Of a stretch of 35,196 nt of DNA, positions 1-35,196 are shown piece by piece; positions within the stretch are counted from its first letter, which is position 1, and the number at the start of each line of letters is the position of its first letter. The stretch is from an uncultured Methylocystis sp. (GTDB lineage: Bacteria; Pseudomonadota; Alphaproteobacteria; Rhizobiales; Beijerinckiaceae), in contig CAZVMY010000002.1 in NCBI GenBank assembly GCA_964628955.1, forward strand, positions 1 through 35,196. Reading direction: 5' to 3'. Under the pieces are notes generated by a model. The model was not told the DNA's origin and made no database searches. It worked only from the letters and a program-made list of their open reading frames with translations. The position numbers and the translations under genes are program-made.

Positions 1-62
1 ACCTGATCCCTGACCTGATCCCAGACCTGATCCCCGACCTGATCCCTGACCTGATTCCTGAC
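1..62. repeat. 12-bp tandem repeat GACCTGATCCCN, about 5 units. This is the left part of a junction-spanning array.
   Basis: Direct reading: acctgatccctg acctgatcccag acctgatccccg acctgatccctg acctgattcctg. The array lies in frame within a minus-strand CDS. Confidence 0.95.
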
Positions 63-317
63 CGCCGGCGCCTTCTTCATAACAGCATTTAGCATGTATG
101 CTGCCATCGCGCCATGCAACGGTGAGTTCATCCAAACGATGATCTTTGGTGGATCAAGTCCAGCAACGGTATATGCTGCGCGAACAGCGGCTTCGGCGCG
201 TGGGCGGTCTGCCGGCTCCGTCGACAGGCCGAATGCCAGAAACCGGTCACGAATGATCGGGATCATGGCTGCCTGTTCGGCCGTCAACGTCGTGATGCGC
301 GGGTCAGTCGAGGACAC
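1..317 (-). CDS. N-terminal part of the junction-spanning repeat protein. The full gene is 34401..35142 joined to 1..317, about 352 aa. It looks like the DUF6745 family; the family number is from memory.
   Basis: The frame is open from GTG at 317, which is preceded by GGGGAGG with 6-nt spacing; an alternative in-frame ATG lies at 335. Translation: VSSTDPRITTLTAEQAAMIPIIRDRFLAFGLSTEPADRPRAEAAVRAAYTVAGLDPPKIIVWMNSPLHGAMAAYMLNAVMKKAPAV, followed by (R/W/G)DQV repeats running off the left edge. The codon phase matches the ORF entering from the right edge. The ORF is absent from the track because it crosses the window edge. Confidence 0.75.
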   Translation of the reverse strand, partial: MSSTDPRITTLTAEQAAMIPIIRDRFLAFGLSTEPADRPRAEAAVRAAYTVAGLDPPKIIVWMNSPLHGAMAAYMLNAVMKKAPAVRNQVRDQVGDQVWDQVRDQ

Positions 318-660
318 GGCGCGCCTCCCCGGCATCGTATTCGCGCTGGGCGCGGACGCGGTACGTGCCGGCGGGCAGCACGATCGGATCGTGTTCCTCG
401 TGCAGCAGGGCTGCGGCCGCCCCTGCGATCTTGATGTGGCCGAGATACAGATCGGATGGCACGTCGCGCGCGAGCCCGTCGTCCCGAAACATCACCACGC
501 CGCCGCTATCGCCCGTGAAGCGATGGCGATGGCCGGTGACCTCGCCTTCGGCGAGGACGACACTGCCGTCGGCGTGCGGCGGGACCAGCTGGCCGGAAGG
601 CGCCGCCACGTCGGCCACGCGCTCCAGAAGCACGTCGCCCTGCAGGTAGAATTCCATCAT
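304..660 (-). CDS. Conserved small phage protein of unknown function, with QGDVLL and GEVTGHRH motifs. A beta-barrel or cupin-like fold is a guess.
   Basis: 118-aa ORF with GGAGA 7 nt upstream of the ATG. It is the second gene of the early minus-strand operon. The motif pattern recurs in phage hypothetical proteins, from memory. Confidence 0.8.
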   Translation of the reverse strand: MMEFYLQGDVLLERVADVAAPSGQLVPPHADGSVVLAEGEVTGHRHRFTGDSGGVVMFRDDGLARDVPSDLYLGHIKIAGAAAALLHEEHDPIVLPAGTYRVRAQREYDAGEARRVLD

Positions 661-690: not shown

Positions 691-933
691 CTATTCCGCG
701 GCCTCCCGCAAGGGCAGCGCTGAAAGCCCGTCCAGATAGGCGCGCATGGCGTCTTCTTCGGCGTGCAGCGCCCGGTCGAGTGCGGCGAGCGTCGACGCGC
801 GAGGATCGTTCACGCCCGTCAGAACCTTGCGCACGTTGTCCTCGTCGAGGCCGGCGCGTTCTGCCAGCGCCTTCACGGGCAGGCGGAGCGCGTCCTTTCG
901 TGCTCGCAGCGCGTGTCCGGTCATGCCCATCAT
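691..933 (-). CDS. Cro/XRE-like HTH regulator, first gene of the early lytic operon.
   Basis: MMGMTGHALRARKDALRLPVKALAERAGLDEDNVRKVLTG fits an HTH pattern. The gene is divergent from the CI-like gene across a 71-bp region containing a perfect palindrome. The start was chosen at the ATG cluster 924..933 rather than the track start at 1005. Confidence 0.7.
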   Translation of the reverse strand: MMGMTGHALRARKDALRLPVKALAERAGLDEDNVRKVLTGVNDPRASTLAALDRALHAEEDAMRAYLDGLSALPLREAAE

Positions 934-969: not shown

Positions 970-1004
970 ACGTGCATCTGATTTTCGGGCGGCCGTCAAC
1001 TGCA

Positions 1005-1727
1005 ATGTTCACTGCTGCCGTCACCTGTCCACAGGGCCATAGTCACGCCGGCGTTCGTGCCGATCGGGGGCGGCTTTTGGCCAAGGCGGACACGGCGAAG
1101 CCGGCGCGCAGCGCCGCGCAGCAGGCCATCCAGGATGCGCAGCGGGCCTGGCTCGCCGAGGTGGTGCAGCAAACCGGCCTCTCGCCGACGCAGCTCGCGC
1201 GTCGCGTCGGCGTGTCCGACACGACGCTCTCCCGCTTCCTGAACAACGTCGACTATCGCGGGGTCCTGAACCCGCTGACCGTGCAGCAGATCAGCGAGTT
1301 CGCGGGCGTGGCCGGACCAGGCGCCGCGCTGGCACCCGACACGACCGGAAGCGTCAGGAGCTTCCGCGAGGAGGGTCGGCCCTTCCTGGCCGAACCGGGA
1401 GACCCGCGTCAGCGCGCGGTCGAGGCGCTGATCGGCGGGCGCAAGAGCGCGTTCGCCTGGGTCATGCGCACGGATATCCTCGCGCTGGCCGGCGTCCGGT
1501 CCGGCGACGTCCTGATCGTCGACCAGGCCGTGCCGGCGCACGACGGCGACGTCGTCTGCGCGCAGATCGAGCGAGGCCTCGGCGCCACCACGGTCTTCCG
1601 CATCTACCAGGCGCCGAACCTCGTGGCGGCCGCGTTCGATGCCCTGGCGGCGCGACCGGAGCCGGTCGACGGCCGCCGCGTTCGGATTGCTGGCGTGATG
1701 ACCGACCTCGTCCGGGGTCGGACATGA
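1005..1727 (+). CDS. CI-like repressor with an N-terminal HTH and a C-terminal LexA/S24-like domain whose catalytic residues appear degenerate.
   Basis: The HTH is GLSPTQLARRVGVSDTTLSRFLNN. The C-terminal segment FAWVMRTDILALAGVRSGDVLIVD...GDVVCAQI...TTVFRIY...RIAGVMTDLV follows the S24 topology. The start is uncertain: GTG at 972 or ATG at 1005. Confidence 0.8.
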   Translation: MFTAAVTCPQGHSHAGVRADRGRLLAKADTAKPARSAAQQAIQDAQRAWLAEVVQQTGLSPTQLARRVGVSDTTLSRFLNNVDYRGVLNPLTVQQISEFAGVAGPGAALAPDTTGSVRSFREEGRPFLAEPGDPRQRAVEALIGGRKSAFAWVMRTDILALAGVRSGDVLIVDQAVPAHDGDVVCAQIERGLGATTVFRIYQAPNLVAAAFDALAARPEPVDGRRVRIAGVMTDLVRGRT

Positions 1728-6296: not shown

Positions 6297-7529
6297 TCAG
6301 AACATGGCCGCCACGGCCCGGATGCGTGTCGCGGCCGCGATGTGCGCCGCGCTCACGGGATGGACGCCGTCCGTCGTCTGGCCCGGCGCCCAGACTGACG
6401 GCGTCCCGGCATCGGCCCAAAGGCCGGCGTTGCAATCGATGACGCCGGCGACGTTGCCGGTGCTCACCTGCGTGTCGAGCCAGGTGTTGAACTGCTCGCG
6501 AATGCCGCCGGGCGCGAAGCCGGGGAGCGGTGTCTGATTGACGGCCGTCGCGAAGGCGTCGGTGGACGTCGTGCGCGGCGGGATGCGGACGTGCCAGCGC
6601 GGAATGCCGAGGCGGGCGAGCTGGCTCCAGATGCCCTGGGCATCGCCCTGCATCTGCGCGAGGGTTCGCCCGTTGTTGACGTCGTTCGTGCCGAGAGAAA
6701 TGATGCAGTGCGTGCAGGTCCACCAGTGGCCACGCTTGCGCGGCTGGATGTCCTGTGCCTGACCGCGCAGCTCGTCGGAGCCGCGAAAATGGCCGAGGCT
6801 CGGCAGTGCCGCACCGCGGATGCCGACGAGCGCGCGACGCGCCATGCCGCGGCTGCCGTCGCCGGCGGACACGTCACCTTGGCCATACGAAAAGCTGTCG
6901 CCGAGGATCAGCACGCTCGGCTGCCTGCGTCCGGCCTGACCGAAGACGCTGATGGGTCCGAAGCCGACCGGCTGCGCCGTACCGGTGATCGCGCCGGTGG
7001 CGGCCGCCTGCGTGGCGCCGCTGTCGGTCGTGGCCGCCTCGCCGGTAGCGTTCGACTGCATGCCGACCGGGATGAACTCGTTCGCGGCGACGAGCACCGA
7101 ACCACGGACCCACCATTCGCTGTTGGCGGGCAGGGTCGGATTGAACGGATCGGTCGTAGCCTCGCCGCCATCGGCGAGCGCCACCGTGCGCGAGCCACCG
7201 AACGTCAGCGGCACGGTGATCGGCACCACGGCGGCGTCGAAACGCGTCTGCGGCGTGGTGATCTCGATCGCCGCGTCGATCGTGAGGACGTTGCCGCTCC
7301 CGGCCTCCGTCCGGCCGGAGGTGATGTAGTAGTTGCCGAACACCAGCCGGACGTTGTTGAGCCCGCTCTCGGGCGCCGTCAGACGCCAGCGAAAGTGCAT
7401 TCGCGTGAAGCCGACCGCCTGCAGCAGGCCGTTCATCGAATGCGCGCGCGTGCCAACCTGCACATGATCATAGATCCTGTTGCGATCGCGAGCGCTCATA
7501 ACCAGACCGCCGCCGACCGTCAGGGTCAT
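6297..7529 (-). CDS. Tail-associated SGNH/GDSL hydrolase (esterase; candidate polysaccharide deacetylase) with an N-terminal beta-rich domain.
   Basis: SGNH blocks: VLILGDSFSYG (block I Ser), SLGTNDV (block III) and TDGVHPVSAAH (block V Asp-x-x-His). The start was taken at ATG 7529, which overlaps the upstream stop, rather than 7712. Confidence 0.85.
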   Translation of the reverse strand: MTLTVGGGLVMSARDRNRIYDHVQVGTRAHSMNGLLQAVGFTRMHFRWRLTAPESGLNNVRLVFGNYYITSGRTEAGSGNVLTIDAAIEITTPQTRFDAAVVPITVPLTFGGSRTVALADGGEATTDPFNPTLPANSEWWVRGSVLVAANEFIPVGMQSNATGEAATTDSGATQAAATGAITGTAQPVGFGPISVFGQAGRRQPSVLILGDSFSYGQGDVSAGDGSRGMARRALVGIRGAALPSLGHFRGSDELRGQAQDIQPRKRGHWWTCTHCIISLGTNDVNNGRTLAQMQGDAQGIWSQLARLGIPRWHVRIPPRTTSTDAFATAVNQTPLPGFAPGGIREQFNTWLDTQVSTGNVAGVIDCNAGLWADAGTPSVWAPGQTTDGVHPVSAAHIAAATRIRAVAAMF

Positions 7530-7786
7530 TTCGTCACCACGACGAAGGGATGCCCGGTCGTGGCGCTCCACGCGAGCAGCGACTGCCCCTCGGCCGGCCG
7601 GCGGCCCTGCGTCGCACCCGCCTCGATCGGGATACCGGTCGTCGCGGATGGAGGGTTGGCAGGATCGTCGGACACCATAAGCGTGGCGCCGCCGAGGTTG
7701 ATGATCGACCACTCGGAGAAGCCGCCGGCGGCGACCGCGACCTCTGCGGTGCCGCCGAGCGTGATGGTGCGGTTGACGATGCTCAT
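7526..7786 (-). CDS. Small beta-rich hypothetical protein (86 aa) between the tailspike and the SGNH esterase.
   Basis: Compact coupled ORF. No recognisable domain. Confidence 0.55.
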   Translation of the reverse strand: MSIVNRTITLGGTAEVAVAAGGFSEWSIINLGGATLMVSDDPANPPSATTGIPIEAGATQGRRPAEGQSLLAWSATTGHPFVVVTK

Positions 7787-7793
7787 GGGTGCC

Positions 7794-9896
7794 TCACGTC
7801 AGCAGGTTGTCGCCGGTGGAGCGGATCGGCGAGCCGCCGGTGTAGTCGTTCAGGACGGCCGTCAGGACGGTCATCTTGTTGTCGCGGACCATGTGACGGT
7901 TGCCGTTGCCGATGAGGATGCCGAAGTCGACGGTCCCGCACCGGGTGGCGTTGTTGCCGATCACCGACACGTGCTCGCAGCCGTCGATGTTGATGATCGC
8001 GGCCGTCCCGCTGACCTTGGTGATGCTGTCCGCTTCCAGCCCGGTGATCGTGAGAGCTTCGATACCGACGAAATAAAGCGCCGCGTTGCCGTCGGCCGGA
8101 TCGCACTGGATCAGGCCGAGGCCGCAGCCGTCGACGACGAACTGGCGGATCGACGCCGAGCCCGTCGACGTCGCGAAGATCGCCGGACCGGTGTAGTTGA
8201 CGAAGTACGGGCGCACGAAGTGGATCTGGAAGATCTGCGCCGTGTCGATCGCGGCGAAATCGACCGCGCGCTGGCCGGCCGGAGCGCCTGGTCCATCCCA
8301 TTGGGTGCCGAAAAACCAGATGTCGCCGATCTGCGACGATCCCGACGCCTCAAGGCGGGTGCCGGTCTTGTAGATCTTGGTGCCGTGAAAATGGAACCCG
8401 CGCGCCTGGCCGCTGCTCGCCGTGAGCACCCTCAGCGGTCGAACCGTCGCGTCGCCGGCAAACTCGCACGAATAGAAGACGAAGTCGCCGCAGAAGGAGT
8501 TCGCGGTGGTCGCCTGGAACAGCGCCGTGCCGGCACGGACGACCACGTTCCGGAAATCGATGTGCTTGGCCTCGTCAACCTGAAGGACGTTGCCTGCAGT
8601 GAAGCTCTCGAATTTCAGGTCGCGTACTTGCGAGAACGCGAAACTGGACGTGACGAGCCCGAAGGCACCGATCCGCAGCCCGGTCGCCGTCGTCGGCCCG
8701 AGAAAGCCGTCGAAATCGATACCGGAAATGTCCATGAGCGCGTCGCCGCGGCCGGTGTTGACGTCAGCCAGCAGGCAGCGCGGGACGATCGACAGGCCGC
8801 GGACGCCGGCGGCGACCCGAAACAGGCAGCCGTTGCCGCGCAGCCGCACCTGATAGGCCCGCGTATCGCTGGCCGACCGGCCGTGTTTCATGGTCAGCCC
8901 GGGCGCGCCGATGAGGTACCGGGCGCCCGGTTGCAGATCGACCCACAGATCGCGATCCTGCGCGAAGTCGATCGCCCGCTGGATCGCCGCAGTGGCGCTC
9001 ACGGCCTCGACCGTGTTCGGCTCGAACACCGACGCGTAGATCGTGTCCACCGGCCCCGGGCGCGGGTGCAGGTAGGTCTGCACGCCGGCGATGAAGCAGC
9101 GGCCGGGTCCCCACGTCTTGCCGAGCGTCGGCGGGACGGTGACGACGTAGGTGCCGGGCGGCACGTAGACCGAGGCGGAGGCCGCTTCCGCTGCCGCGAA
9201 GGCGGCGCTGTCGTCGGCGATGCCGTTGCCGACCGCGCCGAAGTCGAAGGGCGTGGTGACGAGCTGCTGTAACCGGGCGGGCAGCGGCTCGAGCGGCGCC
9301 AGCCGCGCATTGAGCTGCTGGAGCGGCACGGCCTGGAGCGGCGTCGTGGCATTCCCCGGCAGGAGCGGGAAGCCGGTGACCGGCAGCGCGACGCTTGGGT
9401 TGCCGTCCGCGTCGAACACGAAATAGGCGCCGGCGCGCGCGGCGACGGGCGGCAGGCGATCGGGCGGCGTCTCGCCGTCGGGCACGCGCAGCGTCGTCGT
9501 CTCGAGGTCCCGGATGTCGCGCCGCGCCTCCTGGAACAGGATCGTGTGGCGGTCGAACTCACGCTCGAGGAGCGCCGATCGCACCACCCCGGCGAGCGTC
9601 GCATCGAGAAGCCGCTCGTCGATGCGCTCGCCGCGCACGCGGATCGTCGTGCCGGCGACGGCGGGAACCGCGAGAGTGACGGTGGCGACGGCCGGCGCGG
9701 CGCCGCCCAGCGTCACGGTCGCGGCGACGACGACGAACTCGCTGCCGCCGGCTGGCCGGGCCAGCACGGCGACGTCCGCGGGCGCGTAGGCCCGCCAGTC
9801 GGTCGGGCCGAAGACGGTCTGGCCGCCGGCGGCCGTGTAGTCGTTCTGCCGCGTCTGGCGCGGGATGGGATAGGCGATCGACATGCGCGGCAGCAT
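7794..9896 (-). CDS. Tailspike or tail fibre with a right-handed beta-helix (pectate-lyase-type) depolymerase domain.
   Basis: FDFGAVGNGIADDSAAFAAAEAASASVYVPPGTYVV is the classic Pectate_lyase_3 / P22-tailspike-type N-cap motif. Periodic beta-helix-like repeats follow. It sits after the internal virion genes. The true start may be the ATG at 9884. Confidence 0.8.
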   Translation of the reverse strand: MLPRMSIAYPIPRQTRQNDYTAAGGQTVFGPTDWRAYAPADVAVLARPAGGSEFVVVAATVTLGGAAPAVATVTLAVPAVAGTTIRVRGERIDERLLDATLAGVVRSALLEREFDRHTILFQEARRDIRDLETTTLRVPDGETPPDRLPPVAARAGAYFVFDADGNPSVALPVTGFPLLPGNATTPLQAVPLQQLNARLAPLEPLPARLQQLVTTPFDFGAVGNGIADDSAAFAAAEAASASVYVPPGTYVVTVPPTLGKTWGPGRCFIAGVQTYLHPRPGPVDTIYASVFEPNTVEAVSATAAIQRAIDFAQDRDLWVDLQPGARYLIGAPGLTMKHGRSASDTRAYQVRLRGNGCLFRVAAGVRGLSIVPRCLLADVNTGRGDALMDISGIDFDGFLGPTTATGLRIGAFGLVTSSFAFSQVRDLKFESFTAGNVLQVDEAKHIDFRNVVVRAGTALFQATTANSFCGDFVFYSCEFAGDATVRPLRVLTASSGQARGFHFHGTKIYKTGTRLEASGSSQIGDIWFFGTQWDGPGAPAGQRAVDFAAIDTAQIFQIHFVRPYFVNYTGPAIFATSTGSASIRQFVVDGCGLGLIQCDPADGNAALYFVGIEALTITGLEADSITKVSGTAAIINIDGCEHVSVIGNNATRCGTVDFGILIGNGNRHMVRDNKMTVLTAVLNDYTGGSPIRSTGDNLLT

Positions 9897-15300: not shown

Positions 15301-15696
15301 CGTGAAGTCGATCTCGCCGGCTTGCAGACGCTGGAGCCACATGGCGCGCGCCTCCCGCTCGAACCCGTTGTGCTCAGGGTTTTCCAGACTGACGCCGGTG
15401 ACCGACCGCACCACGTCCCGGCGCCGGTCGTAGGCGGCCGTCAGCGCCTCCGATCGGGCGTTCGTGTTGTCGACCAGCTGCTGGCTGCGCCGGGCGGCCT
15501 CGAACAGCCGGTCGCTGCGCCGGCGCGGCTCCTCGAGGAGCGCGGCCTGTTCGTCCCCGGTGAGCGCGAAACCGCGGCGGGCCGATCCGCCCGCGTCGGC
15601 CGCCACCTCGCGCAGCGTCTCGCCGAAGGTCAGGAACTCGTCGGGGCTGGCGACGGTGTCGAACGCGCGGTCGCGCGGCGCTTCCTCGAGGATCAC
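12391..15696 (-). CDS. Polyvalent internal-virion-type protein (1101 aa) carrying a RelA/SpoT-like nucleotidyltransferase domain (aa ~425-590) and a ParB/Srx-like domain (aa ~675-800).
   Basis: RSH-like motif series: GIKTRESAARKLAVKG, then ITDIVRGGFNV, then AGYVDRKLIV, then GEVQFWE, then GHALYERFR. These correspond to the RelQ motifs GRVK..S...K, DIAGLRI, GYRSYHLVV, EIQIRT and H..YKY. The ParB-like motif is KAVVYERSDGSRVIADGHQRLGLARRL. It occupies a gp16-like position after the gp14/gp15-like genes. Confidence 0.8.
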   Translation of the reverse strand: MILEEAPRDRAFDTVASPDEFLTFGETLREVAADAGGSARRGFALTGDEQAALLEEPRRRSDRLFEAARRSQQLVDNTNARSEALTAAYDRRRDVVRSVTGVSLENPEHNGFEREARAMWLQRLQAGEIDFTTYAESFARVSPDLQRRAFDAAVAELAAQKPEWAQALQFYQTPQEQARAIAGNAEAELTQARSTGPGGAAGFAVEGAASVLGSLSDPVTLASLALGAGPSAARSVVGQVTSVALREAAINAGVTALQQPVVQAWRRELGLVNGVEPAIENVGMAALIGGVFGGAVGGLQAALRRPEAVALADTVDRVLSGRGTAAEARQVIDTLGAPLNDDAGRQLDAAARVEAQAADLPPAPAGVAAIDHLDTIDDALRHAIDPDAPSPVSPLPAPAAPPVLADPVEVKRQLAAFKQQVPFTTIDSQFKAAPANQARLAAAADEIGARYGLTFTDPGIKTRESAARKLAVKGYVNASDITDIVRGGFNVRSPADADRVVADLRQRFEIIDEGWSETFAGYVDRKLIVRFPDGQLGEVQFWEPSLYKAKETGGGHALYERFRTLSPGAERDRALAEMQALYARIRSGLSDAWRGIGGNIGNEGNVASNASGVITLPDVRTSASSTSVQRPSISAKAALGENSTGSPSQVPTAQLAVIDRPSGGEALSSEPVRFRVLDRPVAFESVPATSLTTDALTFQYKSAGDAAGVTDRLRSVGSWDPLAAGKAVVYERSDGSRVIADGHQRLGLARRLLRESPAQDIRLDAYVFREADGWTPADVRAIAAKKNLQEGSGTLLDTARIIRDRPDLFDASLPLSDGRIQQAVGLARLSDVAWSAVINERVEANHAAWIGRQLPNQPELHGAIVESLVRVRPDSEAAARFAISDAIVAGFRTEVQETLFGQLETTLSLAPERARIFTAAMKRLEQDKRLFSVLTDRATAIEAAGNQLDTVANAGRRDTADRLRFLLEKLATRTGPVSDALNRAAVALAEGGRTNAVADRFTQDVLDLIQRDGLDALSASPSLRTASPVEPGSPAAAAQADALTPELQLRDPAVEPSFFDTLPQAATEGGRDMRPVPIAEALVEADKKELFGDLVASCKLD

Positions 15697-25870: not shown

Positions 25871-26128
25871 TCAGCCGAGCGTCTGCTGGGCGCCGACTGC
25901 GGGAGCGCCAGCCGCCTCGAGGAGCCGGCGGCCCTTCGGCGTGCGGCGTGCGCGGCCGAGCTGCACCTCCTGCTGCGCCTGCTCGGCCTGCTGCGCCTCG
26001 ATCTGCTTGCCCTGCGCGAGCGTCTGCGTCTCGCGCTGCTGCGCGGCGATGTTGCCCTGCTGGATCTGGGCCAGTCGGGCGTTACGCCCCGAGAACAGGT
26101 TGCCGATCGCCTTGGCGAAACCGCTCAT
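25871..26128 (-). CDS. Small Gln-rich coiled-coil protein (85 aa).
   Basis: ATGA coupling at 26125..26128 favours the start at 26128. Function unknown. Confidence 0.5.
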   Translation of the reverse strand: MSGFAKAIGNLFSGRNARLAQIQQGNIAAQQRETQTLAQGKQIEAQQAEQAQQEVQLGRARRTPKGRRLLEAAGAPAVGAQQTLG

Positions 26129-31522: not shown

Positions 31523-32080
31523 TCACGCCGCGGGCGGCTTGCTGCGTCTGGGCGATGCAGGCAGCGCCGCGGCCGCCGGCCAGGCGCTGTCGATCGGATC
31601 CAACATGCTGCCGACGCCGGCGAGGATGGTGTCCTCGATGGCCGTCGCCGGCGGCGGCGACGGCTGGCTCACCGGTACCGGGCGCAGGGCGCGGAGCTGC
31701 ATCAGCTGCGCATGCATGGCCGTGACCGCGATCAGAAGGAAATCCCATTCTATCCGCTCCAGCACCGGCAGCGCCTCGAAGCCCTGCGGATCGCGATCGT
31801 GCAGGCCGATCGCCGAGGCGCGGCGGAACGCGGCCTCCGCGCTGGTTATCCTGTGATCGATCACGAAGCGCACCAGGTCGAGCAGCTGTCCGCGTGTGCA
31901 GTCGGCCCAGTATCGGGCGAGATCGTGATCGGTTTGCGGCAGGAACCGCATGACGACCGACGCCTGTCTCATGGTCGCATCGGCAAATTCGGCGCATGCC
32001 TCGACGATCGCCGCATCGTCGTGCAGGTCCTGCGTCACCCACCCGGCCGCCGCCGTCGTTTTGTCGAGCGCGTTCGTCAT
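31523..32080 (-). CDS. Hypothetical protein (185 aa) in the replication module.
   Basis: ATGA coupling to the primase stop. No recognisable domain. Confidence 0.55.
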   Translation of the reverse strand: MTNALDKTTAAAGWVTQDLHDDAAIVEACAEFADATMRQASVVMRFLPQTDHDLARYWADCTRGQLLDLVRFVIDHRITSAEAAFRRASAIGLHDRDPQGFEALPVLERIEWDFLLIAVTAMHAQLMQLRALRPVPVSQPSPPPATAIEDTILAGVGSMLDPIDSAWPAAAALPASPRRSKPPAA

Positions 32081-33171
32081 CTCGTCCCTCTCAGCAGGTC
32101 GTTCGTGTCCTTGCCGTGGTGCGATCGCGCCACGGCCACCGGCTTGTCGTGACTCTCCAGGCCTTCGACGGCGGCTTCGAGCGCATCCATCGCCTGCGGC
32201 CTGGACCAGTCGTTGTCGGCACCGACGACGACCGCGCGGACGCAGGGATGCCAGACCGGCGCATGGATCAGATTAGACAGGCTGGTCGCCGCCCACACGC
32301 GGGCGTCCGGGACCGCGAGCGCCCAGGACAGGCCATCCTCGATGCCCTCGCACAGGATGAGCACGCCGCTCTGGCCGGCGTCGCCTGCATCCTCGACGCG
32401 CATGTTGGACGGCCCGCGCGCGAGGCGGATCACGCCGCCCTTGACCGCGCCGAACATCAGTTTCGGCTTGTCGACCGGAGCCTTGCCGGCGCCGTCCTGC
32501 GCCAGGTAGGTGCAGTGGACGCCGGTGACGGCGCCTCGGCCGTCCCGGATCGCCGCCACGATCGCGGGATACCTTGGCCCGCTCGCGGTCTTGCGCCGCG
32601 CGCTGCCGGCGCCCGTGTACACGGCGCCTTCCCACCACTCGAGGTCGGGCGAGAAGCGCAGCTCGCCGCGCTCCGGGTTCGGCACGTCTGCAATCGGAAT
32701 GCCGCGCGCGGCGAGATAGGTCTCGGCTGGCGTGCCGCTGATGGACTGCCTGGCGCCCAGCCAGAGCTCGAAGGCTCTGCGCTGCCGCTCCGCCAGCCGC
32801 AGATGTTCGGCCCGTTCCGCCGCCTGCCGGTCGACGGCTGCCCGGCGCTTCATCTGCGCCAGCTGCCTCGGGCTGAGCTCGCGCAGCCCGAGAAAGTCCT
32901 TGGCGTACCGCACCGCCCCGGCGGTGTCGGTGCCGACCACGTAGGCGATCAGGTCGAGGATCGAGCCCTTGTCACCGGTCGCGTAGTCCTTCCACGCGCC
33001 GTTTTTCACCCATACGCAGAAGCTGCCGGGCTGGGCGTCCGCGCGCGTCGGGTTCCGCGCCATCCACCGCGGCCCGGTCCGCTTGCCGTCAGGCAGCAGT
33101 TGCCTGACCAGCGCCTCCGGTCGCGTGCCTTCCTGCAACATGGCCTTGATCTCATTAGCGGTCAGACGCAT
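32077..33171 (-). CDS. Toprim-domain DNA primase (P4-alpha N-terminal-like), 364 aa.
   Basis: The N-terminus reads NPTRADAQPGSFCVWVKNGAWKDYATGDKGSILDLIAYV. Toprim motifs are LILCEGIEDGLS and VVVGADNDWSRPQ. The start was taken at ATG 33171 rather than the track start at 33360. Confidence 0.85.
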   Translation of the reverse strand: MRLTANEIKAMLQEGTRPEALVRQLLPDGKRTGPRWMARNPTRADAQPGSFCVWVKNGAWKDYATGDKGSILDLIAYVVGTDTAGAVRYAKDFLGLRELSPRQLAQMKRRAAVDRQAAERAEHLRLAERQRRAFELWLGARQSISGTPAETYLAARGIPIADVPNPERGELRFSPDLEWWEGAVYTGAGSARRKTASGPRYPAIVAAIRDGRGAVTGVHCTYLAQDGAGKAPVDKPKLMFGAVKGGVIRLARGPSNMRVEDAGDAGQSGVLILCEGIEDGLSWALAVPDARVWAATSLSNLIHAPVWHPCVRAVVVGADNDWSRPQAMDALEAAVEGLESHDKPVAVARSHHGKDTNDLLRGTR

Positions 33172-33730
33172 GGCCGCTTCCCGTGACGAGGCCGGCGACG
33201 CGCGCGAGCCGGCCGTCCGTGACCGCGTCGTCACGCGAGGCCTCGACGCTGGCGACGATCCTGTTGACCATGGGCGGCGATATCCCGAACAGCCGGGCGA
33301 TCGTCGCCTGCGCCACCGCCAGCTCGGTGTTGACGAGATAGATCGCCTCCCGGCGGACACGTTCGGCGGCGATCAGGTCGGCGGTCTTGGCCCTGAGGCC
33401 GCGCCGTGGCACGCGACCGCCCGTGCTCACGACCGCCGGCACGGTGCGCGGATCGAGCCCGCTCTCGATCGCGAGCGCCGCGGCGAAACCGCAGTAGGCA
33501 CTCCGGATCATGCAGTCGGCGAGCACGTCGTCCGGCAGCGCGACCGCGATCGTCTGCCAGCCGCGGATCACTTCGCGCACCACCCACTCGCGCGCGGCGT
33601 CCGGCGCGGTTATGGCCAGGCGATAGGTGTCGGGATGGATGCCGGCCGCCAGCGCCAGGCGCGTGCGCGGCACGCCGACGCGCTCCCGCAGCTGCTCGAT
33701 CGCCAGGAGTGCGAACGCACCGGGGCTCAT
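33155..33730 (-). CDS. HTH DNA-binding protein (191 aa). Candidate replication initiator or regulator.
   Basis: The C-terminal segment EAIYLVNTELAVAQATIARLFGISPPMVNRIV looks like a DnaA-domain-IV or sigma-r4-type HTH. It is the first gene of the replication block. Confidence 0.6.
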   Translation of the reverse strand: MSPGAFALLAIEQLRERVGVPRTRLALAAGIHPDTYRLAITAPDAAREWVVREVIRGWQTIAVALPDDVLADCMIRSAYCGFAAALAIESGLDPRTVPAVVSTGGRVPRRGLRAKTADLIAAERVRREAIYLVNTELAVAQATIARLFGISPPMVNRIVASVEASRDDAVTDGRLARVAGLVTGSGHASDR

Positions 33731-33733
33731 GGG

Positions 33734-33958
33734 TCAGGCATCGGCCGTGTAGGCGCCGCACCATTCGGCGGCATAGGCCAGCGGCCAGCGGTCGTCGCAG
33801 ACGACGGTCAACCCGTCCGCCACCGGCACCTCGAGATGGCGCGTCGGGCGCCCCGGCGGCGCGTGGCGACACGCGCCGAGCTCGGTCGCGCCATGCCGGG
33901 ACCAGTGGACGCAGGTCAGGCATACCCGGTTCGGATCGCGGTCAAGGCGCTTCATCAT
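33734..33958 (-). CDS. Small Cys-rich protein (74 aa).
   Basis: CLTCVHW...C..H pattern. It is a coupled ORF in the early operon. Confidence 0.5.
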   Translation of the reverse strand: MMKRLDRDPNRVCLTCVHWSRHGATELGACRHAPPGRPTRHLEVPVADGLTVVCDDRWPLAYAAEWCGAYTADA

Positions 33959-34404
33959 TGCACCGTCTCGCGGCCGGTCGGCGCGGCCTCTCCTGACATC
34001 CGTCGGTCACCCTCCCGGGCCTGCTGCCGGGCGGCGGTGATCCGCCCTCGCACCAGCACGCGGGCGGTGAGATACGGCCGACGCTCGAGCACCTCGCCCG
34101 GCGGCCGCCAGCTGCGGCGACCCGCGCGCTGCCGGGCGTCTTCGTCGCGGAAGCCGCTGGCGAGGCGTGCCAGACAACCCCAGAGGCGCAGCTTTGACGC
34201 CAGCGTGCGCTCGAACCGGCAGGCCATGAAGAGGTCGTAGAGTTCGGCACCCCGGCTCTTGCGCCGGTTGTTGAACGCGTGCCGGCAGGCGGCGCAGCAG
34301 AACCCGCCGGCGTCAGCCGACGCCGGGAGGACTGCGTCACACTCGGCGCACCACGCGTGTACACGGCGGCTCGGGGACGCAGCAGTGGCGACGATGCCGG
34401 TCAC
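33955..34404 (-). CDS. Zinc-ribbon-containing hypothetical protein (149 aa).
   Basis: CAECDAVLPASADAGGFCCAACRHAFNNRR provides four Cys. ATGA coupling on both sides. Confidence 0.55.
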   Translation of the reverse strand: MTGIVATAASPSRRVHAWCAECDAVLPASADAGGFCCAACRHAFNNRRKSRGAELYDLFMACRFERTLASKLRLWGCLARLASGFRDEDARQRAGRRSWRPPGEVLERRPYLTARVLVRGRITAARQQAREGDRRMSGEAAPTGRETVQ

Positions 34405-35196
34405 GTCCGCACCCCCTCATGGTACGTCGCCGGATCGATGCCGTAGGTCCAGGCGACGGCTTCGTGCGGCGTCCGAACATCGGGCGGTACCAGCAGGTGA
34501 TAGGCCTTACGACTGCCGTCCGGTTCGAGCGTTCCGTTCAGCACCTCGCAGATCGCCATCGGCTCCGACGCGCCATAGCTGACGTGCCACAGCCGCCGAG
34601 GCTGGCCATGTTCGATATCCTCCGCGATAAGCGTCCTGCGCCTGCCCATCTCGCTCAGGACGCGGTCTCGGCCAAATATCTCCATCAGGCAGCGCCGCAG
34701 TTCCTGATTTTTCTCGGCGAATATCAGTTTCGGCGTGATGCGCGCCGGCTCCTCGATGAACCAGGCGGGCACGCGGATGCCGTGCCAGGCGTAAACCGCG
34801 AACCCGTCACGGTAGCGCAGCGCAGGTCCGGTTGCAGAATGCAGCCGTCGCCTGTCGTCCCTGTTCAAGGTGTCGGGTCGGTCGGTCAGAATGCAGGCGC
34901 CGCGGAATGGGAAGTACCAGCCCGCCGTAGCGCACAGATCGATCAGCGGCGTCAGTTTTCGCGCAGCCTCCAATCCGCATGCATCGCGCCAGAATGCATA
35001 GAACGACAGCCAGCCCGCGTCGTACTGCCCATACCCGCACTGGCGGACGGCTTCCCCGACCTGAACCCTGACCTGATCCCTGACCTGATCCCTGACCTGA
35101 TCCCAGACCTGATCCCAGACCTGATCCCTGACCTGATCCCAGACCTGATCCCTGACCTGATCCCAGACCTGATCCCCGACCTGATCCCTGACCTGA
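34401..35196 (-). CDS. C-terminal part of the junction-spanning repeat protein: the repeat array plus a conserved C-terminal domain. It looks like the DUF6745 family; the family number is from memory.
   Basis: The frame is open from the right edge to the stop at 34401. Translation: (R/W/G)DQV repeats, then GEAVRQCGYGQYDAGWLSFYAFWRDACGL...AGWYFPFRGACILTDRPDTLNRDDRRRLHSATGPALRYRDGFAVYAWHGIRVP. The track ORF 34401..34973 is only its TTG-truncated tail. Confidence 0.8.
   Translation of the reverse strand, partial: QVRDQVGDQVWDQVRDQVWDQVRDQVWDQVWDQVRDQVRDQVRVQVGEAVRQCGYGQYDAGWLSFYAFWRDACGLEAARKLTPLIDLCATAGWYFPFRGACILTDRPDTLNRDDRRRLHSATGPALRYRDGFAVYAWHGIRVPAWFIEEPARITPKLIFAEKNQELRRCLMEIFGRDRVLSEMGRRRTLIAEDIEHGQPRRLWHVSYGASEPMAICEVLNGTLEPDGSRKAYHLLVPPDVRTPHEAVAWTYGIDPATYHEGVRT
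35058..35196. repeat. 12-bp tandem repeat GACCTGATCCCN, about 11.6 units. This is the right part of the same array, and its last 54 nt duplicate 1..54.
   Basis: Direct reading from 35058. The non-redundant array is 147 nt, or 12 units. The ten internal units differ only at the 12th base (T/A/C). Confidence 0.95.

Follow-up and report, generated by a model that had tools for sequence, protein, structure and literature searches.

One gene across the junction of the contig ends

The stretch of DNA analysed here, 35,196 nt in length and referred to below as the window, both begins and ends within a 12-bp tandem repeat. This raises the question of whether the two ends carry the halves of a single gene and, if so, what a phage protein interrupted by an array of near-identical tetrapeptides might do. 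The first 54 nt of the window match its last 54 nt exactly (35143..35196 duplicates 1..54), the match lying inside the array, and joining the ends through this overlap yields a circle of 35,142 bp. The initial annotation had proposed that one open reading frame crosses the junction in phase, and the same frame was recovered on the minus strand (34401..35142 plus 1..317; 1059 nt, 352 aa, 12 units), with its stop codon at 34401..34403. At period 12, TRF located 12.0 copies of the unit at the 3' end of the window (35053..35196, minus strand) and 5.2 copies at 1..63 (minus strand), the N-terminal-side end of the array, which reads RNQV, RDQV, GDQV onwards. The sense unit, NGGGATCAGGTC, encodes (R/W/G)DQV. 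A pattern of two consecutive units matched the window 13 times, always within the array, and did not match any of 100 shuffled sequences. The gene starts with GTG (315..317), preceded by GGAGG 6 nt upstream (324..328); an alternative ATG lies at 333..335. The start geometry is identical in the closest relative (locus L002).

Two other readings of the junction were considered, namely that it is an assembly artefact or that the plus-strand (DLIP)n frame is the one expressed. Both contig ends indeed consist of repeat sequence, and the plus-strand frame is free of stops over 319 aa. However, each end holds one half of a conserved protein, in the correct order and in phase, and identical flanks enter the array in four other samples. 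The plus-strand ORF, which had been flagged for checking, is an Arg-rich antisense shadow of a high-GC gene, without homologue support. Given the in-phase conserved halves and the lack of (DLIP)n homologues, we find both readings barely credible and have rejected them outright.

The window represents a temperate, podovirus-like phage whose genome closes into a circle. A megablast search of a phage collection with 20 kb of the window returned no match, and a scan for tRNA and Rfam families found none. The phage is contained in 22 sequencing runs. In Logan contigs (k = 31) of four other samples the flanks agree with the window and every contig ends inside the array, either at 35099 or after matching the first three N-side units. 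A contig break inside an array that spans, in the joined form, 153 nt of a 35-kb circle points to an unresolved assembly graph, and array unitigs have a depth 1.5–3.8 times that of the flanks. Moreover, the window ends match exactly over an alternative overlap of 18 nt as well, which yields 15 units. Since every assembly ends inside the array and this second overlap exists, 12 units is the count of one assembly and not a measured value. The unit count of the window array is thus not reliable, as had been cautioned. Estimates from k-mer mass (~12 units in one run and ~17 in another) were not relied on, because the unit may also occur in other phages of these samples. Such arrays break metagenomic assemblies and create false contig ends, which matters when viral genomes are called circular or complete.

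A DUF6745 protein with an inserted array

The joined protein matches the Pfam family DUF6745 (PF20530), scoring 179.9 bits where the cut-off is 27 (E 5.1e-53; profile positions 10–202 of 206). The model aligns to the C-terminal half only (aa 149–354 in the ATG-start version), which is encoded at 34401..35052 on the minus strand. Both halves had been assigned to DUF6745; the assignment holds for the C-terminal half, while the N-terminal domain (~85 aa; 64..317, minus strand), although conserved in the family, is not part of the Pfam model. Searches with the whole protein retrieved 1,257 homologues, the best of which shares 63% identity across 98% of its length; coverage of the query exceeds 90% in most of the 120 matches listed and reaches 98–100%, and nearly all of these matches possess an array. 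Since homologues span 98% of the joined protein, its N- and C-terminal halves belong together, and all 30 homologue sequences inspected contain N-domain, array and C-domain. Within the C-terminal domain, H207, Y216 and D218 are conserved in 99–100% of 152 relatives, and R194, R255 and R256 of the protein are universally conserved as well. With more than 1,200 protein matches and with loci on viral contigs (177) and in genomes (109), the family extends over phages of Proteobacteria, Actinomycetota, Cyanobacteria, Chloroflexota and CPR bacteria. Judged by these sequence comparisons, the window gene is an ordinary DUF6745 member with a short array, composed of an 85-aa N-domain, the inserted array and a 210-aa C-domain.

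The AlphaFold model of the joined protein (pLDDT 84.7, pTM 0.77) is confident in both domains (pLDDT >90; 96–98 in the N-domain, mostly >90 in the C-domain). The two halves are thus modelled confidently in one chain, in agreement with the earlier proposal that they belong to a single family. Judging from the pTM, the two domains probably pack as one globular body. The array lies between helices 66–94 and 122–139 with a pLDDT of ~43, and at this low confidence the geometry of any arm that it forms is a guess. A glycine share of ~30% is unusual for a helix.

Foldseek searches of the PDB with the models of this protein and of its neighbour (see below) gave no match at E values up to 0.001, and a BFVD structure search with the DUF6745 model retrieved other DUF6745 proteins only. 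Profile searches against PDB sequences yielded low-complexity proteins only. In NCBIfam the DUF6745 protein had a sub-threshold match to GvpQ (17.9 bits; cut-off 100), and no signal peptide was seen on direct reading of its sequence. A literature search for DUF6745, for strings such as DQVWDQV and for phage tetrapeptide repeats found no relevant paper.

An alphabet of residues in a fast-changing array

The units of the window array read RNQV RDQV GDQV WDQV RDQV WDQV RDQV WDQV WDQV RDQV RDQV RVQV. As reported previously, the ten internal units vary at base 1 only (A, T or G, giving AGG, TGG or GGG); base 5 and base 8, both adenine, stay constant in the window. The toggle is no recent quirk of the window gene. 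Over 3,381 units, position 1 is occupied by R (31%), W (28%) or G (27%) and position 2 by D (50%) or A (29%), followed by Q (96%) and V (95%). The R/W/G set is kept in all of the QV, SV and QL flavours of the array, gp38 of prophiGD102-1 having 46 (R/W/G)(D/G)QL units, and degenerate arrays retain R and G through other codons. The toggle is thus an old alphabet that the whole family shares.

At the DNA level, the units within one array are alike except at bases 1 and 5 (77 arrays). Position-1 codons are nearly all NGG in these arrays (97% of Arg and Gly codons), and the remaining ten bases are constant within arrays; one array of 60 units (L083) comprises 6 distinct DNA units. Arginine is encoded by AGG only in 45 arrays, by CGG only in 25 and by both in 6. 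Synonymous sites are uniform inside each array and differ from array to array. Unit identity within arrays, together with synonymous differences between them, indicates concerted evolution plus maintained diversity. The order of units is near random, with identical neighbours avoided (z = -5.4), and per-array composition shows a binomial spread around one third for each residue, without excess variance.

Relatives had been expected to carry xDxV-type repeats, and across the family the array indeed ranges from 0 to 70 units. Members from Bradyrhizobium, Amycolatopsis and phage Ma-LMM01 do not have a homogenised array, which shows that the core activity can do without it. Actinobacterial members display a hydrophobic period of 4 residues without any DNA repeat. 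Length polymorphism, also predicted, is found between relatives: copies with 99.7–100% identical flanks contain 30 versus 29, 31 versus 30, 26 versus 32 and 11 versus 21 units. Unit counts differ even between array copies within one genome, and copies with near-identical flanks also differ in unit order, although for many of these differences the source is a short-read assembly, in which such repeats can be misordered; the pairs on long contigs are L093/L096 and L099/L100 only. In these comparisons the number and order of units evolve faster than the flanks.

A conserved two-gene module

The initial annotation overlooked a gene located directly upstream of the array gene on the same strand (304..660, 118 aa, phrog_27831), with an overlap of 14 nt between its stop and the start of the array gene. 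The array gene is translationally coupled to this upstream partner. The partner family (~115 aa; more than 6,000 cluster representatives) has the motif QGD...GE.TGH.H...H.EH and the invariant residues Q7, G8, D9, E13, E40, H44, H46, H75, H87, H90, R103, Q105, R106 and D118, five of them histidines; by motif, size and adjacency, the window gene belongs to the module. Among 84 loci of viral and other origin, 73 have a partner homologue next to the array gene and the remaining 11 are truncated; among 80 genome loci, the two genes are adjacent in 68. The partner is equally conserved beside DUF6745 members that have no array, and in one case (P0378) the partner and DUF6745 are naturally fused. Wherever adjacency could be assessed, then, the partner is an obligate neighbour of the DUF6745 gene in phages and prophages of many phyla.

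Searches of Pfam and NCBIfam with the partner found no family. Its AlphaFold model is all-beta and confident (pLDDT 88.9). A cupin identity, which the GH.H and H.EH motifs brought to mind, was dropped because this model finds no cupin in the PDB. DUF6745 and its partner thus constitute an obligate module of two genes, with two confident models that have no match in the PDB. The family itself had already been named DUF6745; what is new is its pairing with the partner and the fast-changing array of fixed alphabet.

As claimed previously, the array gene is the third of the early operon. This operon, on the minus strand, opens with a cro-like HTH gene (691..933; Pfam HTH_31, E 8.5e-9), which is followed by the partner gene and the array gene; the pair precedes the primase gene. 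Opposite to it lies a divergent gene for a CI/LexA-like repressor (972..1727, plus strand) with an HTH and an S24/UmuD-like C-terminus, supported by PHROG matches to UmuD-like proteins and transcriptional repressors. The module, which is common in prophages, is found among genes of replication and recombination; elsewhere it adjoins genes for YqaJ or DUF3799 exonucleases, Lar, methylases and RNase T. In Mycobacterium prophage prophiGD102-1 the partner gp37 (E 4e-24) is directly upstream of the DUF6745 gene gp38. In Ma-LMM01 the partner gp175 (E 1.6e-31) is directly upstream of the DUF6745 gene gp174, and the pair is located between the genes for DNA polymerase and UDG; gp38 and gp174 both have the same layout of N-domain, insert and C-domain as the window protein, but the insert of gp174 is non-repetitive. 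Both Ma-LMM01 genes fall into the middle/replication expression class B5 (PMC5780444).

Possible function of the module

Our best inference is that the two proteins of the module provide a conserved activity that is linked to DNA metabolism and furnished with a rapidly diversifying interaction arm. The globular body and the partner would together act, in a conserved and metal-dependent manner, on a ligand such as a nucleic acid or a nucleotide-like molecule. The array may form an arm of variable length that leaves the body, probably prolonging its two flanking helices. Replication slippage and unequal recombination would homogenise the units and alter their number, and selection at the protein level would uphold the alphabet. 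In this way the arm could act as a fast-diversifying contact surface for a variable target of the host or of a competitor. The activity would be deployed early in lytic growth, alongside the replication and recombination genes of the phage, and may serve host takeover or counter-defence. Taken as a whole, this explanation is the one that we favour, tentatively and at somewhat less than an even chance. If the array is such an adaptive surface, it offers a simple natural system in which binding elements are diversified without dedicated mutagenesis machinery.

Alternatively, the array might be a passive spacer of variable length, with inconsequential slippage and with R/W/G and D/A as tolerated noise. 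The range of 0 to 70 units among functional-looking homologues, the members without a homogenised array, the near-random unit order with binomial composition and the low AlphaFold confidence of the array would all fit. Noise, however, should add second- and third-base as well as synonymous changes, whereas Arg and Gly codons are almost invariably NGG and the other ten bases do not vary within arrays. Likewise, neutral homogenisation should fix one type of unit, yet all three stay at about one third with no excess variance. Together with the recurrence of the same three residues across the QV, SV and QL flavours and across phyla, and with the avoidance of identical neighbours, this makes a spacer unlikely, although it still deserves some weight. 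Nor do we think that the constraint acts on the nucleic acid, so that a GGG every 12 nt of the sense strand would give rise to G-rich DNA or RNA structures, to ribosome pausing on the rare codons AGG or GGG, or to a recombination hot spot, with the peptide of secondary importance. NGG at position 1 followed by a G-initial codon at position 2 does create a GGG in each unit of the QV, SV and QL arrays, and the rare codons AGG and GAT are used in spite of a genome with ~88% GC3. But three degenerate arrays (L013, L067 and L082) keep Arg, Gly and Trp by means of CGT, AGA, GGT and GGA, and the GGG tract is therefore missing there. The array is, moreover, always in frame between two conserved domains, and the actinobacterial members show their four-residue periodicity without a DNA repeat; a nucleic-acid constraint is hence quite improbable.

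A different role for the whole module, in prophage defence or superinfection exclusion, would have the array sense components of incoming phages, with the partner or the DUF6745 body as effector. Sensors built of hypervariable repeats are characteristic of defence proteins, and the module is frequent in prophages and strictly composed of two genes. In the window, however, it follows cro within the early operon of the lytic programme and does not occupy a lysogeny-expressed position, and the strictly lytic Ma-LMM01 has the module and expresses it with replication genes. Searches with PADLOC-DB v2 HMMs at E values up to 0.1 gave no match to the DUF6745 protein, the partner or the downstream 149-aa gene, and on balance a defence role seems improbable. 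The strictly adjacent, enzyme-like partner with its five invariant histidines, the short repeated peptides of fixed alphabet and the natural fusion would also agree with an array that is a multi-copy substrate, modified post-translationally by the partner in the manner of a multi-core precursor. Because the partner is just as conserved beside array-less members, and protease, leader, export features and signal peptide are absent, we consider such a substrate highly improbable. Some ideas about the form of the array were dropped as well: a DNA mimic (each unit has a net charge of no more than about -0.2), a salt-bridged single helix (D is not coupled to the following R; chi-square p = 0.05) and a beta-solenoid with three units per turn (the lag-3 signal is weak, z = 2.7).

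Comparison with known repeat and diversification systems

Phage coding diversity focused on particular nucleotides is also characteristic of the variable regions of diversity-generating retroelements (DGRs), and base-1 variation by such targeted hypermutation would be consistent with the one or two variable nucleotides per unit and with base 1 being A in the commonest unit. The window, in contrast, contains no second (template) copy of the unit, and PHROG or Pfam scans of ~35 ORFs revealed no reverse transcriptase. The variation is not adenine-specific, base 5 and base 8 being constantly A in the window, and it does not extend to four bases. If base 1 mutated at random, the synonymous pair should occur mixed, yet 70 of 76 arrays use AGG or CGG exclusively. 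With neither a template repeat in the window nor a reverse transcriptase among the scanned ORFs, and with only three base-1 alleles per array, a DGR was rejected outright as having practically no likelihood.

In evolutionary pattern the array resembles the TAL effectors of Xanthomonas, which likewise consist of near-identical DNA units with two adjacent hypervariable residues, reshuffled in number and order by recombination. TAL units, however, are 34 aa long and form a DNA-reading alpha-solenoid, whereas those of the window are 4 aa long, and the window array showed no Pfam or Foldseek similarity to TAL-like repeats, so that the evolutionary pattern alone is alike. To our knowledge, the array is the shortest TAL-like arrangement, with two hypervariable positions and a fixed 3 x 2 alphabet whose residues keep an even frequency. 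By analogy, it could be a programmable recognition module of TAL/PPR type, in which each unit would read one element of a linear polymer through a six-letter code (R/W/G x D/A). A rise of about 6 Å over four helical residues comes near the length per nucleotide in stretched single-stranded DNA, and the polymer would therefore most plausibly be a nucleic-acid strand. Slippage and recombination might then rewrite the code in very few generations and retarget the conserved two-protein enzyme. We regard this reading as very unlikely.

Pentapeptide repeats (PF00805; Qnr, MfpA) share with the array a very short period and one conserved hydrophobic position, and some pentapeptide-repeat proteins interfere with DNA enzymes. 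They differ in having a period of 5 instead of 4, a quadrilateral beta-helix and DNA units that are not homogenised; no PF00805 match was obtained with Pfam at E values up to 1 or with Foldseek. Coding VNTRs and contingency repeats, such as the collagen-like GXY of phage fibres and the arrays of surface proteins, resemble the array in their DNA-identical in-frame units and slippage-driven length. Those proteins, however, are surface or virion components under immune or receptor pressure and have no fixed two-position alphabet, whereas the DUF6745 array protein is cytoplasmic and belongs to the early/replication expression class.

A gene spanning the ends of the contig

The first 54 nt of the window are identical to its last 54 nt, and joining the ends through this overlap yields a circle of 35,142 bp, in which the period-12 tandem repeats at the 3′ end (positions 35053–35196; 12.0 copies) and the 5′ end (1–63; 5.2 copies) form one period-12 array. 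The same join reproduced the single minus-strand ORF claimed in the initial annotation (34401–35142 plus 1–317; 1059 nt, 352 aa). The ORF starts with GTG at 317, with GGAGG six nucleotides upstream, and there is a 14-nt overlap between its start and the stop of the gene before it. The closest relative shows the same arrangement. The twelve encoded units read RNQV RDQV GDQV WDQV RDQV WDQV RDQV WDQV WDQV RDQV RDQV RVQV, and their listing bears out the earlier statement that the ten internal units vary solely at the first base of the AGG/TGG/GGG codon. Within the window the unit is confined to the array, and it had zero occurrences in shuffled sequence. We are nearly certain that the gene and its architecture are as described; a junction artefact or expression of the antisense frame is very unlikely. 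The plus-strand (DLIP)n frame, stop-free over 319 aa, was rejected as an Arg-rich antisense shadow with no homologue support. The initial observation and most of its interpretation stand.

A second exact terminal overlap, of 18 nt, gives 15 units and is also in frame. The chance that a random contig break falls inside the 153-nt array of a 35-kb circle is ∼0.4%, so that the break signals an unresolved graph. More than a dozen runs from biofilters, biofilms and drinking water contain the phage, where it is represented solely by k = 31 contigs. The contig on the C-terminal side ends at 35099 in four runs and that on the N-terminal side after the third unit in four samples; the array unitigs are 37–68 nt long, reach 1.5–3.8 times the depth of the flanks and in some cases differ from the window by 1–2 bases. 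Both flanks and the outermost three or four units are reproducible, but the interior count is not. Contig ends also lie inside the array in about ten of 80 related viral loci (L016, L054, L060, L061, L063, L066, L068, L069, L078 and L080 of IMG/VR). The tetrapeptide array routinely breaks short-read assemblies, and it can create spurious terminal overlaps that are taken for circularity. In one biofilter run (X2) both flanks are present at full identity; no contig of that run was at least 90% alike over the stretch encoding the N-terminal domain (69–301), which may reflect a variant domain or a gap in the contigs of the run.

The DUF6745 family and its partner

Pfam family DUF6745 matches the C-terminal half of the joined protein (E = 5e-53), in agreement with the membership given in the initial annotation. 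Protein searches retrieved 1,257 homologues, the best of which is 63% identical and covers 98% of the joined protein, showing that its N- and C-terminal halves belong to one family, as had been proposed; the three-part layout is common to all 30 homologues examined in full. In the AlphaFold model (pLDDT 84.7, pTM 0.77) the N-terminal (residues ∼10–85) and C-terminal (∼135–345) domains have pLDDT values above 90, and we infer from the pTM that they are confidently placed relative to each other. The array (residues 89–129; pLDDT ∼43) has helices on either side (66–94 and 122–139). No relative of the array protein was found by Foldseek against the PDB, by a PDB sequence profile search or in NCBIfam and PADLOC, and BFVD matches to the model were other DUF6745 proteins only. 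In a set of 152 diverse members, H207 and D218 never vary; conservation is 99% for Y216, G219 and G227 and 92% for R194, R255 and R256. Within this catalogued but uncharacterised family, the gene is an ordinary member with a short array.

When all ORFs within 3 kb of the DUF6745 gene were clustered for 84 loci, a single cluster dominated: a ∼115-aa protein encoded in the same orientation and immediately next to the DUF6745 gene, on its upstream or downstream side. Its HMM matched in 73 of the 84 loci, the remaining 11 being cut by a contig end beside the DUF6745 gene, and the two genes adjoin in 68 of 80 genome loci. DUF6745 genes have this partner as an obligate neighbour. The partner is the better conserved of the two (53–70% identity in the best 120 matches), and its family comprises 6,184 cluster representatives. 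The invariant residues Q7, G8, D9, E13, E40, H44, H46, H75, H87, H90, R103, Q105, R106 and D118 include five histidines. No Pfam family was found for the partner in the window (304–660), and its all-beta AlphaFold model (pLDDT 88.9) had no PDB match. In P0378 (565 aa) the partner forms the N-terminal ∼145 aa, followed by a full DUF6745 protein; this natural fusion, a lone example that could be a gene-call or frameshift artefact, suggests that the two proteins work together physically. In P0365 (232 aa) an N-terminal HNH_3 endonuclease domain is fused to a partner homologue, and HNH-like genes adjoin the two-gene module in seven loci, which may represent homing-endonuclease traffic. Other neighbours, some identified by our own reading of the sequence, are YqaJ or DUF3799 exonucleases, RNase T, methylases, Lar and SSB-like genes.

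Genome matches came from Alpha- and Deltaproteobacteria, Actinomycetota, Chloroflexota, Acidobacteriota, Planctomycetota, Cyanobacteria and CPR bacteria. Many members, such as those of Bradyrhizobium and Amycolatopsis, lack a homogenised array, and their insert is non-repetitive or degenerate with V, I or L at each fourth residue; the module is therefore old, with the homogenised array representing a derived and dynamic version of the insert. Practical entry points for experiments are two cultured phages with the module: Ma-LMM01 (L165; gp175/gp174), without an array, and the Mycobacterium prophage prophiGD102-1 (L166; gp37/gp38), with 46 (R/W/G)(D/G)QL units. A search for literature on DUF6745, the partner and the tetrapeptide array found no paper in the searchable library. 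For specialists, the points of interest at the family level are the obligate partner, two predicted folds without a PDB match and a tetrapeptide array that is homogenised and changes fast and whose alphabet is evenly mixed.

Composition and change of the array

Among 3,381 units from 121 proteins, position 1 is R (31%), W (28%) or G (27%), position 2 mostly D (50%) or A (29%), position 3 Q (96%) and position 4 V (95%). Proteins contain 0–70 units (median 25), which places the twelve units of the window at the low end. In the DNA of 77 arrays (1,901 units), the units of any one array are identical save at base 1, which has three alleles, and at base 5, which is usually A or C; L083, for example, has 6 distinct units among 60. 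Synonymous sites (GAT/GAC, GTC/GTG, TCG/TCC/AGC) vary between arrays and not within them, a signature of concerted evolution. Three array flavours exist (QV, SV and QL) and R, W and G each make up about one third in all, so that conservation is higher for the "variable" alphabet than for the "constant" residues. Unit order is near random, with avoidance of same-type neighbours (z = −5.4) and a weak lag-3 excess; no D–R coupling between units was detected.

Unit number changes rapidly. Loci with identical flanks have 30 and 29 units (L018/L024), and 11 and 21 units occur between flanks 99.8% identical (L028/L032); at the latter identity L070 and L079 differ in unit order. Misassembled short reads may exaggerate some of the differences; long contigs gave 31 and 30 units for two loci of one 2.6-Mb contig (L099/L100; flanks 99.7–100% identical) and 26 and 32 for two of one MAG (L093/L096; flanks 100% identical).

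Possible function and alternatives

Slippage and unequal recombination among the 12-bp units would homogenise the array and alter its length, and selection on the protein would hold the three-by-two alphabet evenly mixed. The array may protrude as an exposed arm, variable in length, from a conserved core of two proteins. The invariant His, Asp, Tyr and Arg residues of this core and its genomic setting suggest a metal-dependent activity directed at nucleic acids or nucleotides and exerted during early lytic growth. This functional reading is tentative and may well prove wrong.

One alternative is that the constraint acts on the nucleic acid. Position-1 codons are almost exclusively NGG (AGG 401, CGG 204 and other Arg codons 18; GGG 557 and other Gly codons 17; TGG 555); degenerate low-GC arrays retain R, G and W with different codons, a sign of selection at the protein level. 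Introduction of the variation by a DGR is very unlikely; Arg is encoded by AGG only in 45 arrays, by CGG only in 25 and by both in just 6, which argues against random mutation of base 1. The array might also be a passive spacer. Under neutral homogenisation, however, a single unit type would come to predominate, and per-array composition shows exactly binomial spread about one third, so that something keeps the mixture even.

Two further alternatives concern the module as a whole. It might serve in prophage defence; against this, genes gp173–gp178 of Ma-LMM01, gp174/gp175 among them, all fall in transcriptome subclass B5, the middle/replication class that also contains DNA polymerase and UDG (PMC5780444, text and supplementary file 4). 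The array might instead be a substrate modified by the partner.

Phage genome and early operon

The window is a temperate podovirus-like phage, with identified genes for an integrase, a CI/LexA-like repressor, a primase, a portal, a major head protein, tail tube B and a pectate-lyase-like spike. The array gene does occupy the third place in the minus-strand early operon assigned to it earlier, after a cro-like HTH gene (691–933) and the 118-aa partner gene. Its GC content is 62%, versus 69% for the genome, and its array uses the rare codons AGG, GGG and GAT, a composition that suggests lateral origin or homogenisation outrunning codon adaptation. Directly downstream on the same strand lies a 149-aa gene (33955–34404; phrog_20494, E = 3e-29), which shows a weak, sub-threshold likeness to the putative nuclease YbcO.

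A lysophospholipase L1-like (SGNH-type) esterase and an adjoining 700-aa protein with a pectate-lyase-like domain (6297–7712 and 7794–9896, minus strand) are probably a tail spike and a surface-polysaccharide-modifying enzyme. Three more short tandem repeats, all in coding regions (2263–2308, 15470–15529 and 25970–26044), have periods of 18, 30 and 33 bp and 2–2.6 copies. The primase ORF (DUF7146 and Toprim; 32077–33360, minus strand) overlaps by ∼200 nt the upstream 191-aa HTH-like ORF (33155–33730, minus strand), and the primase probably starts further downstream than listed.
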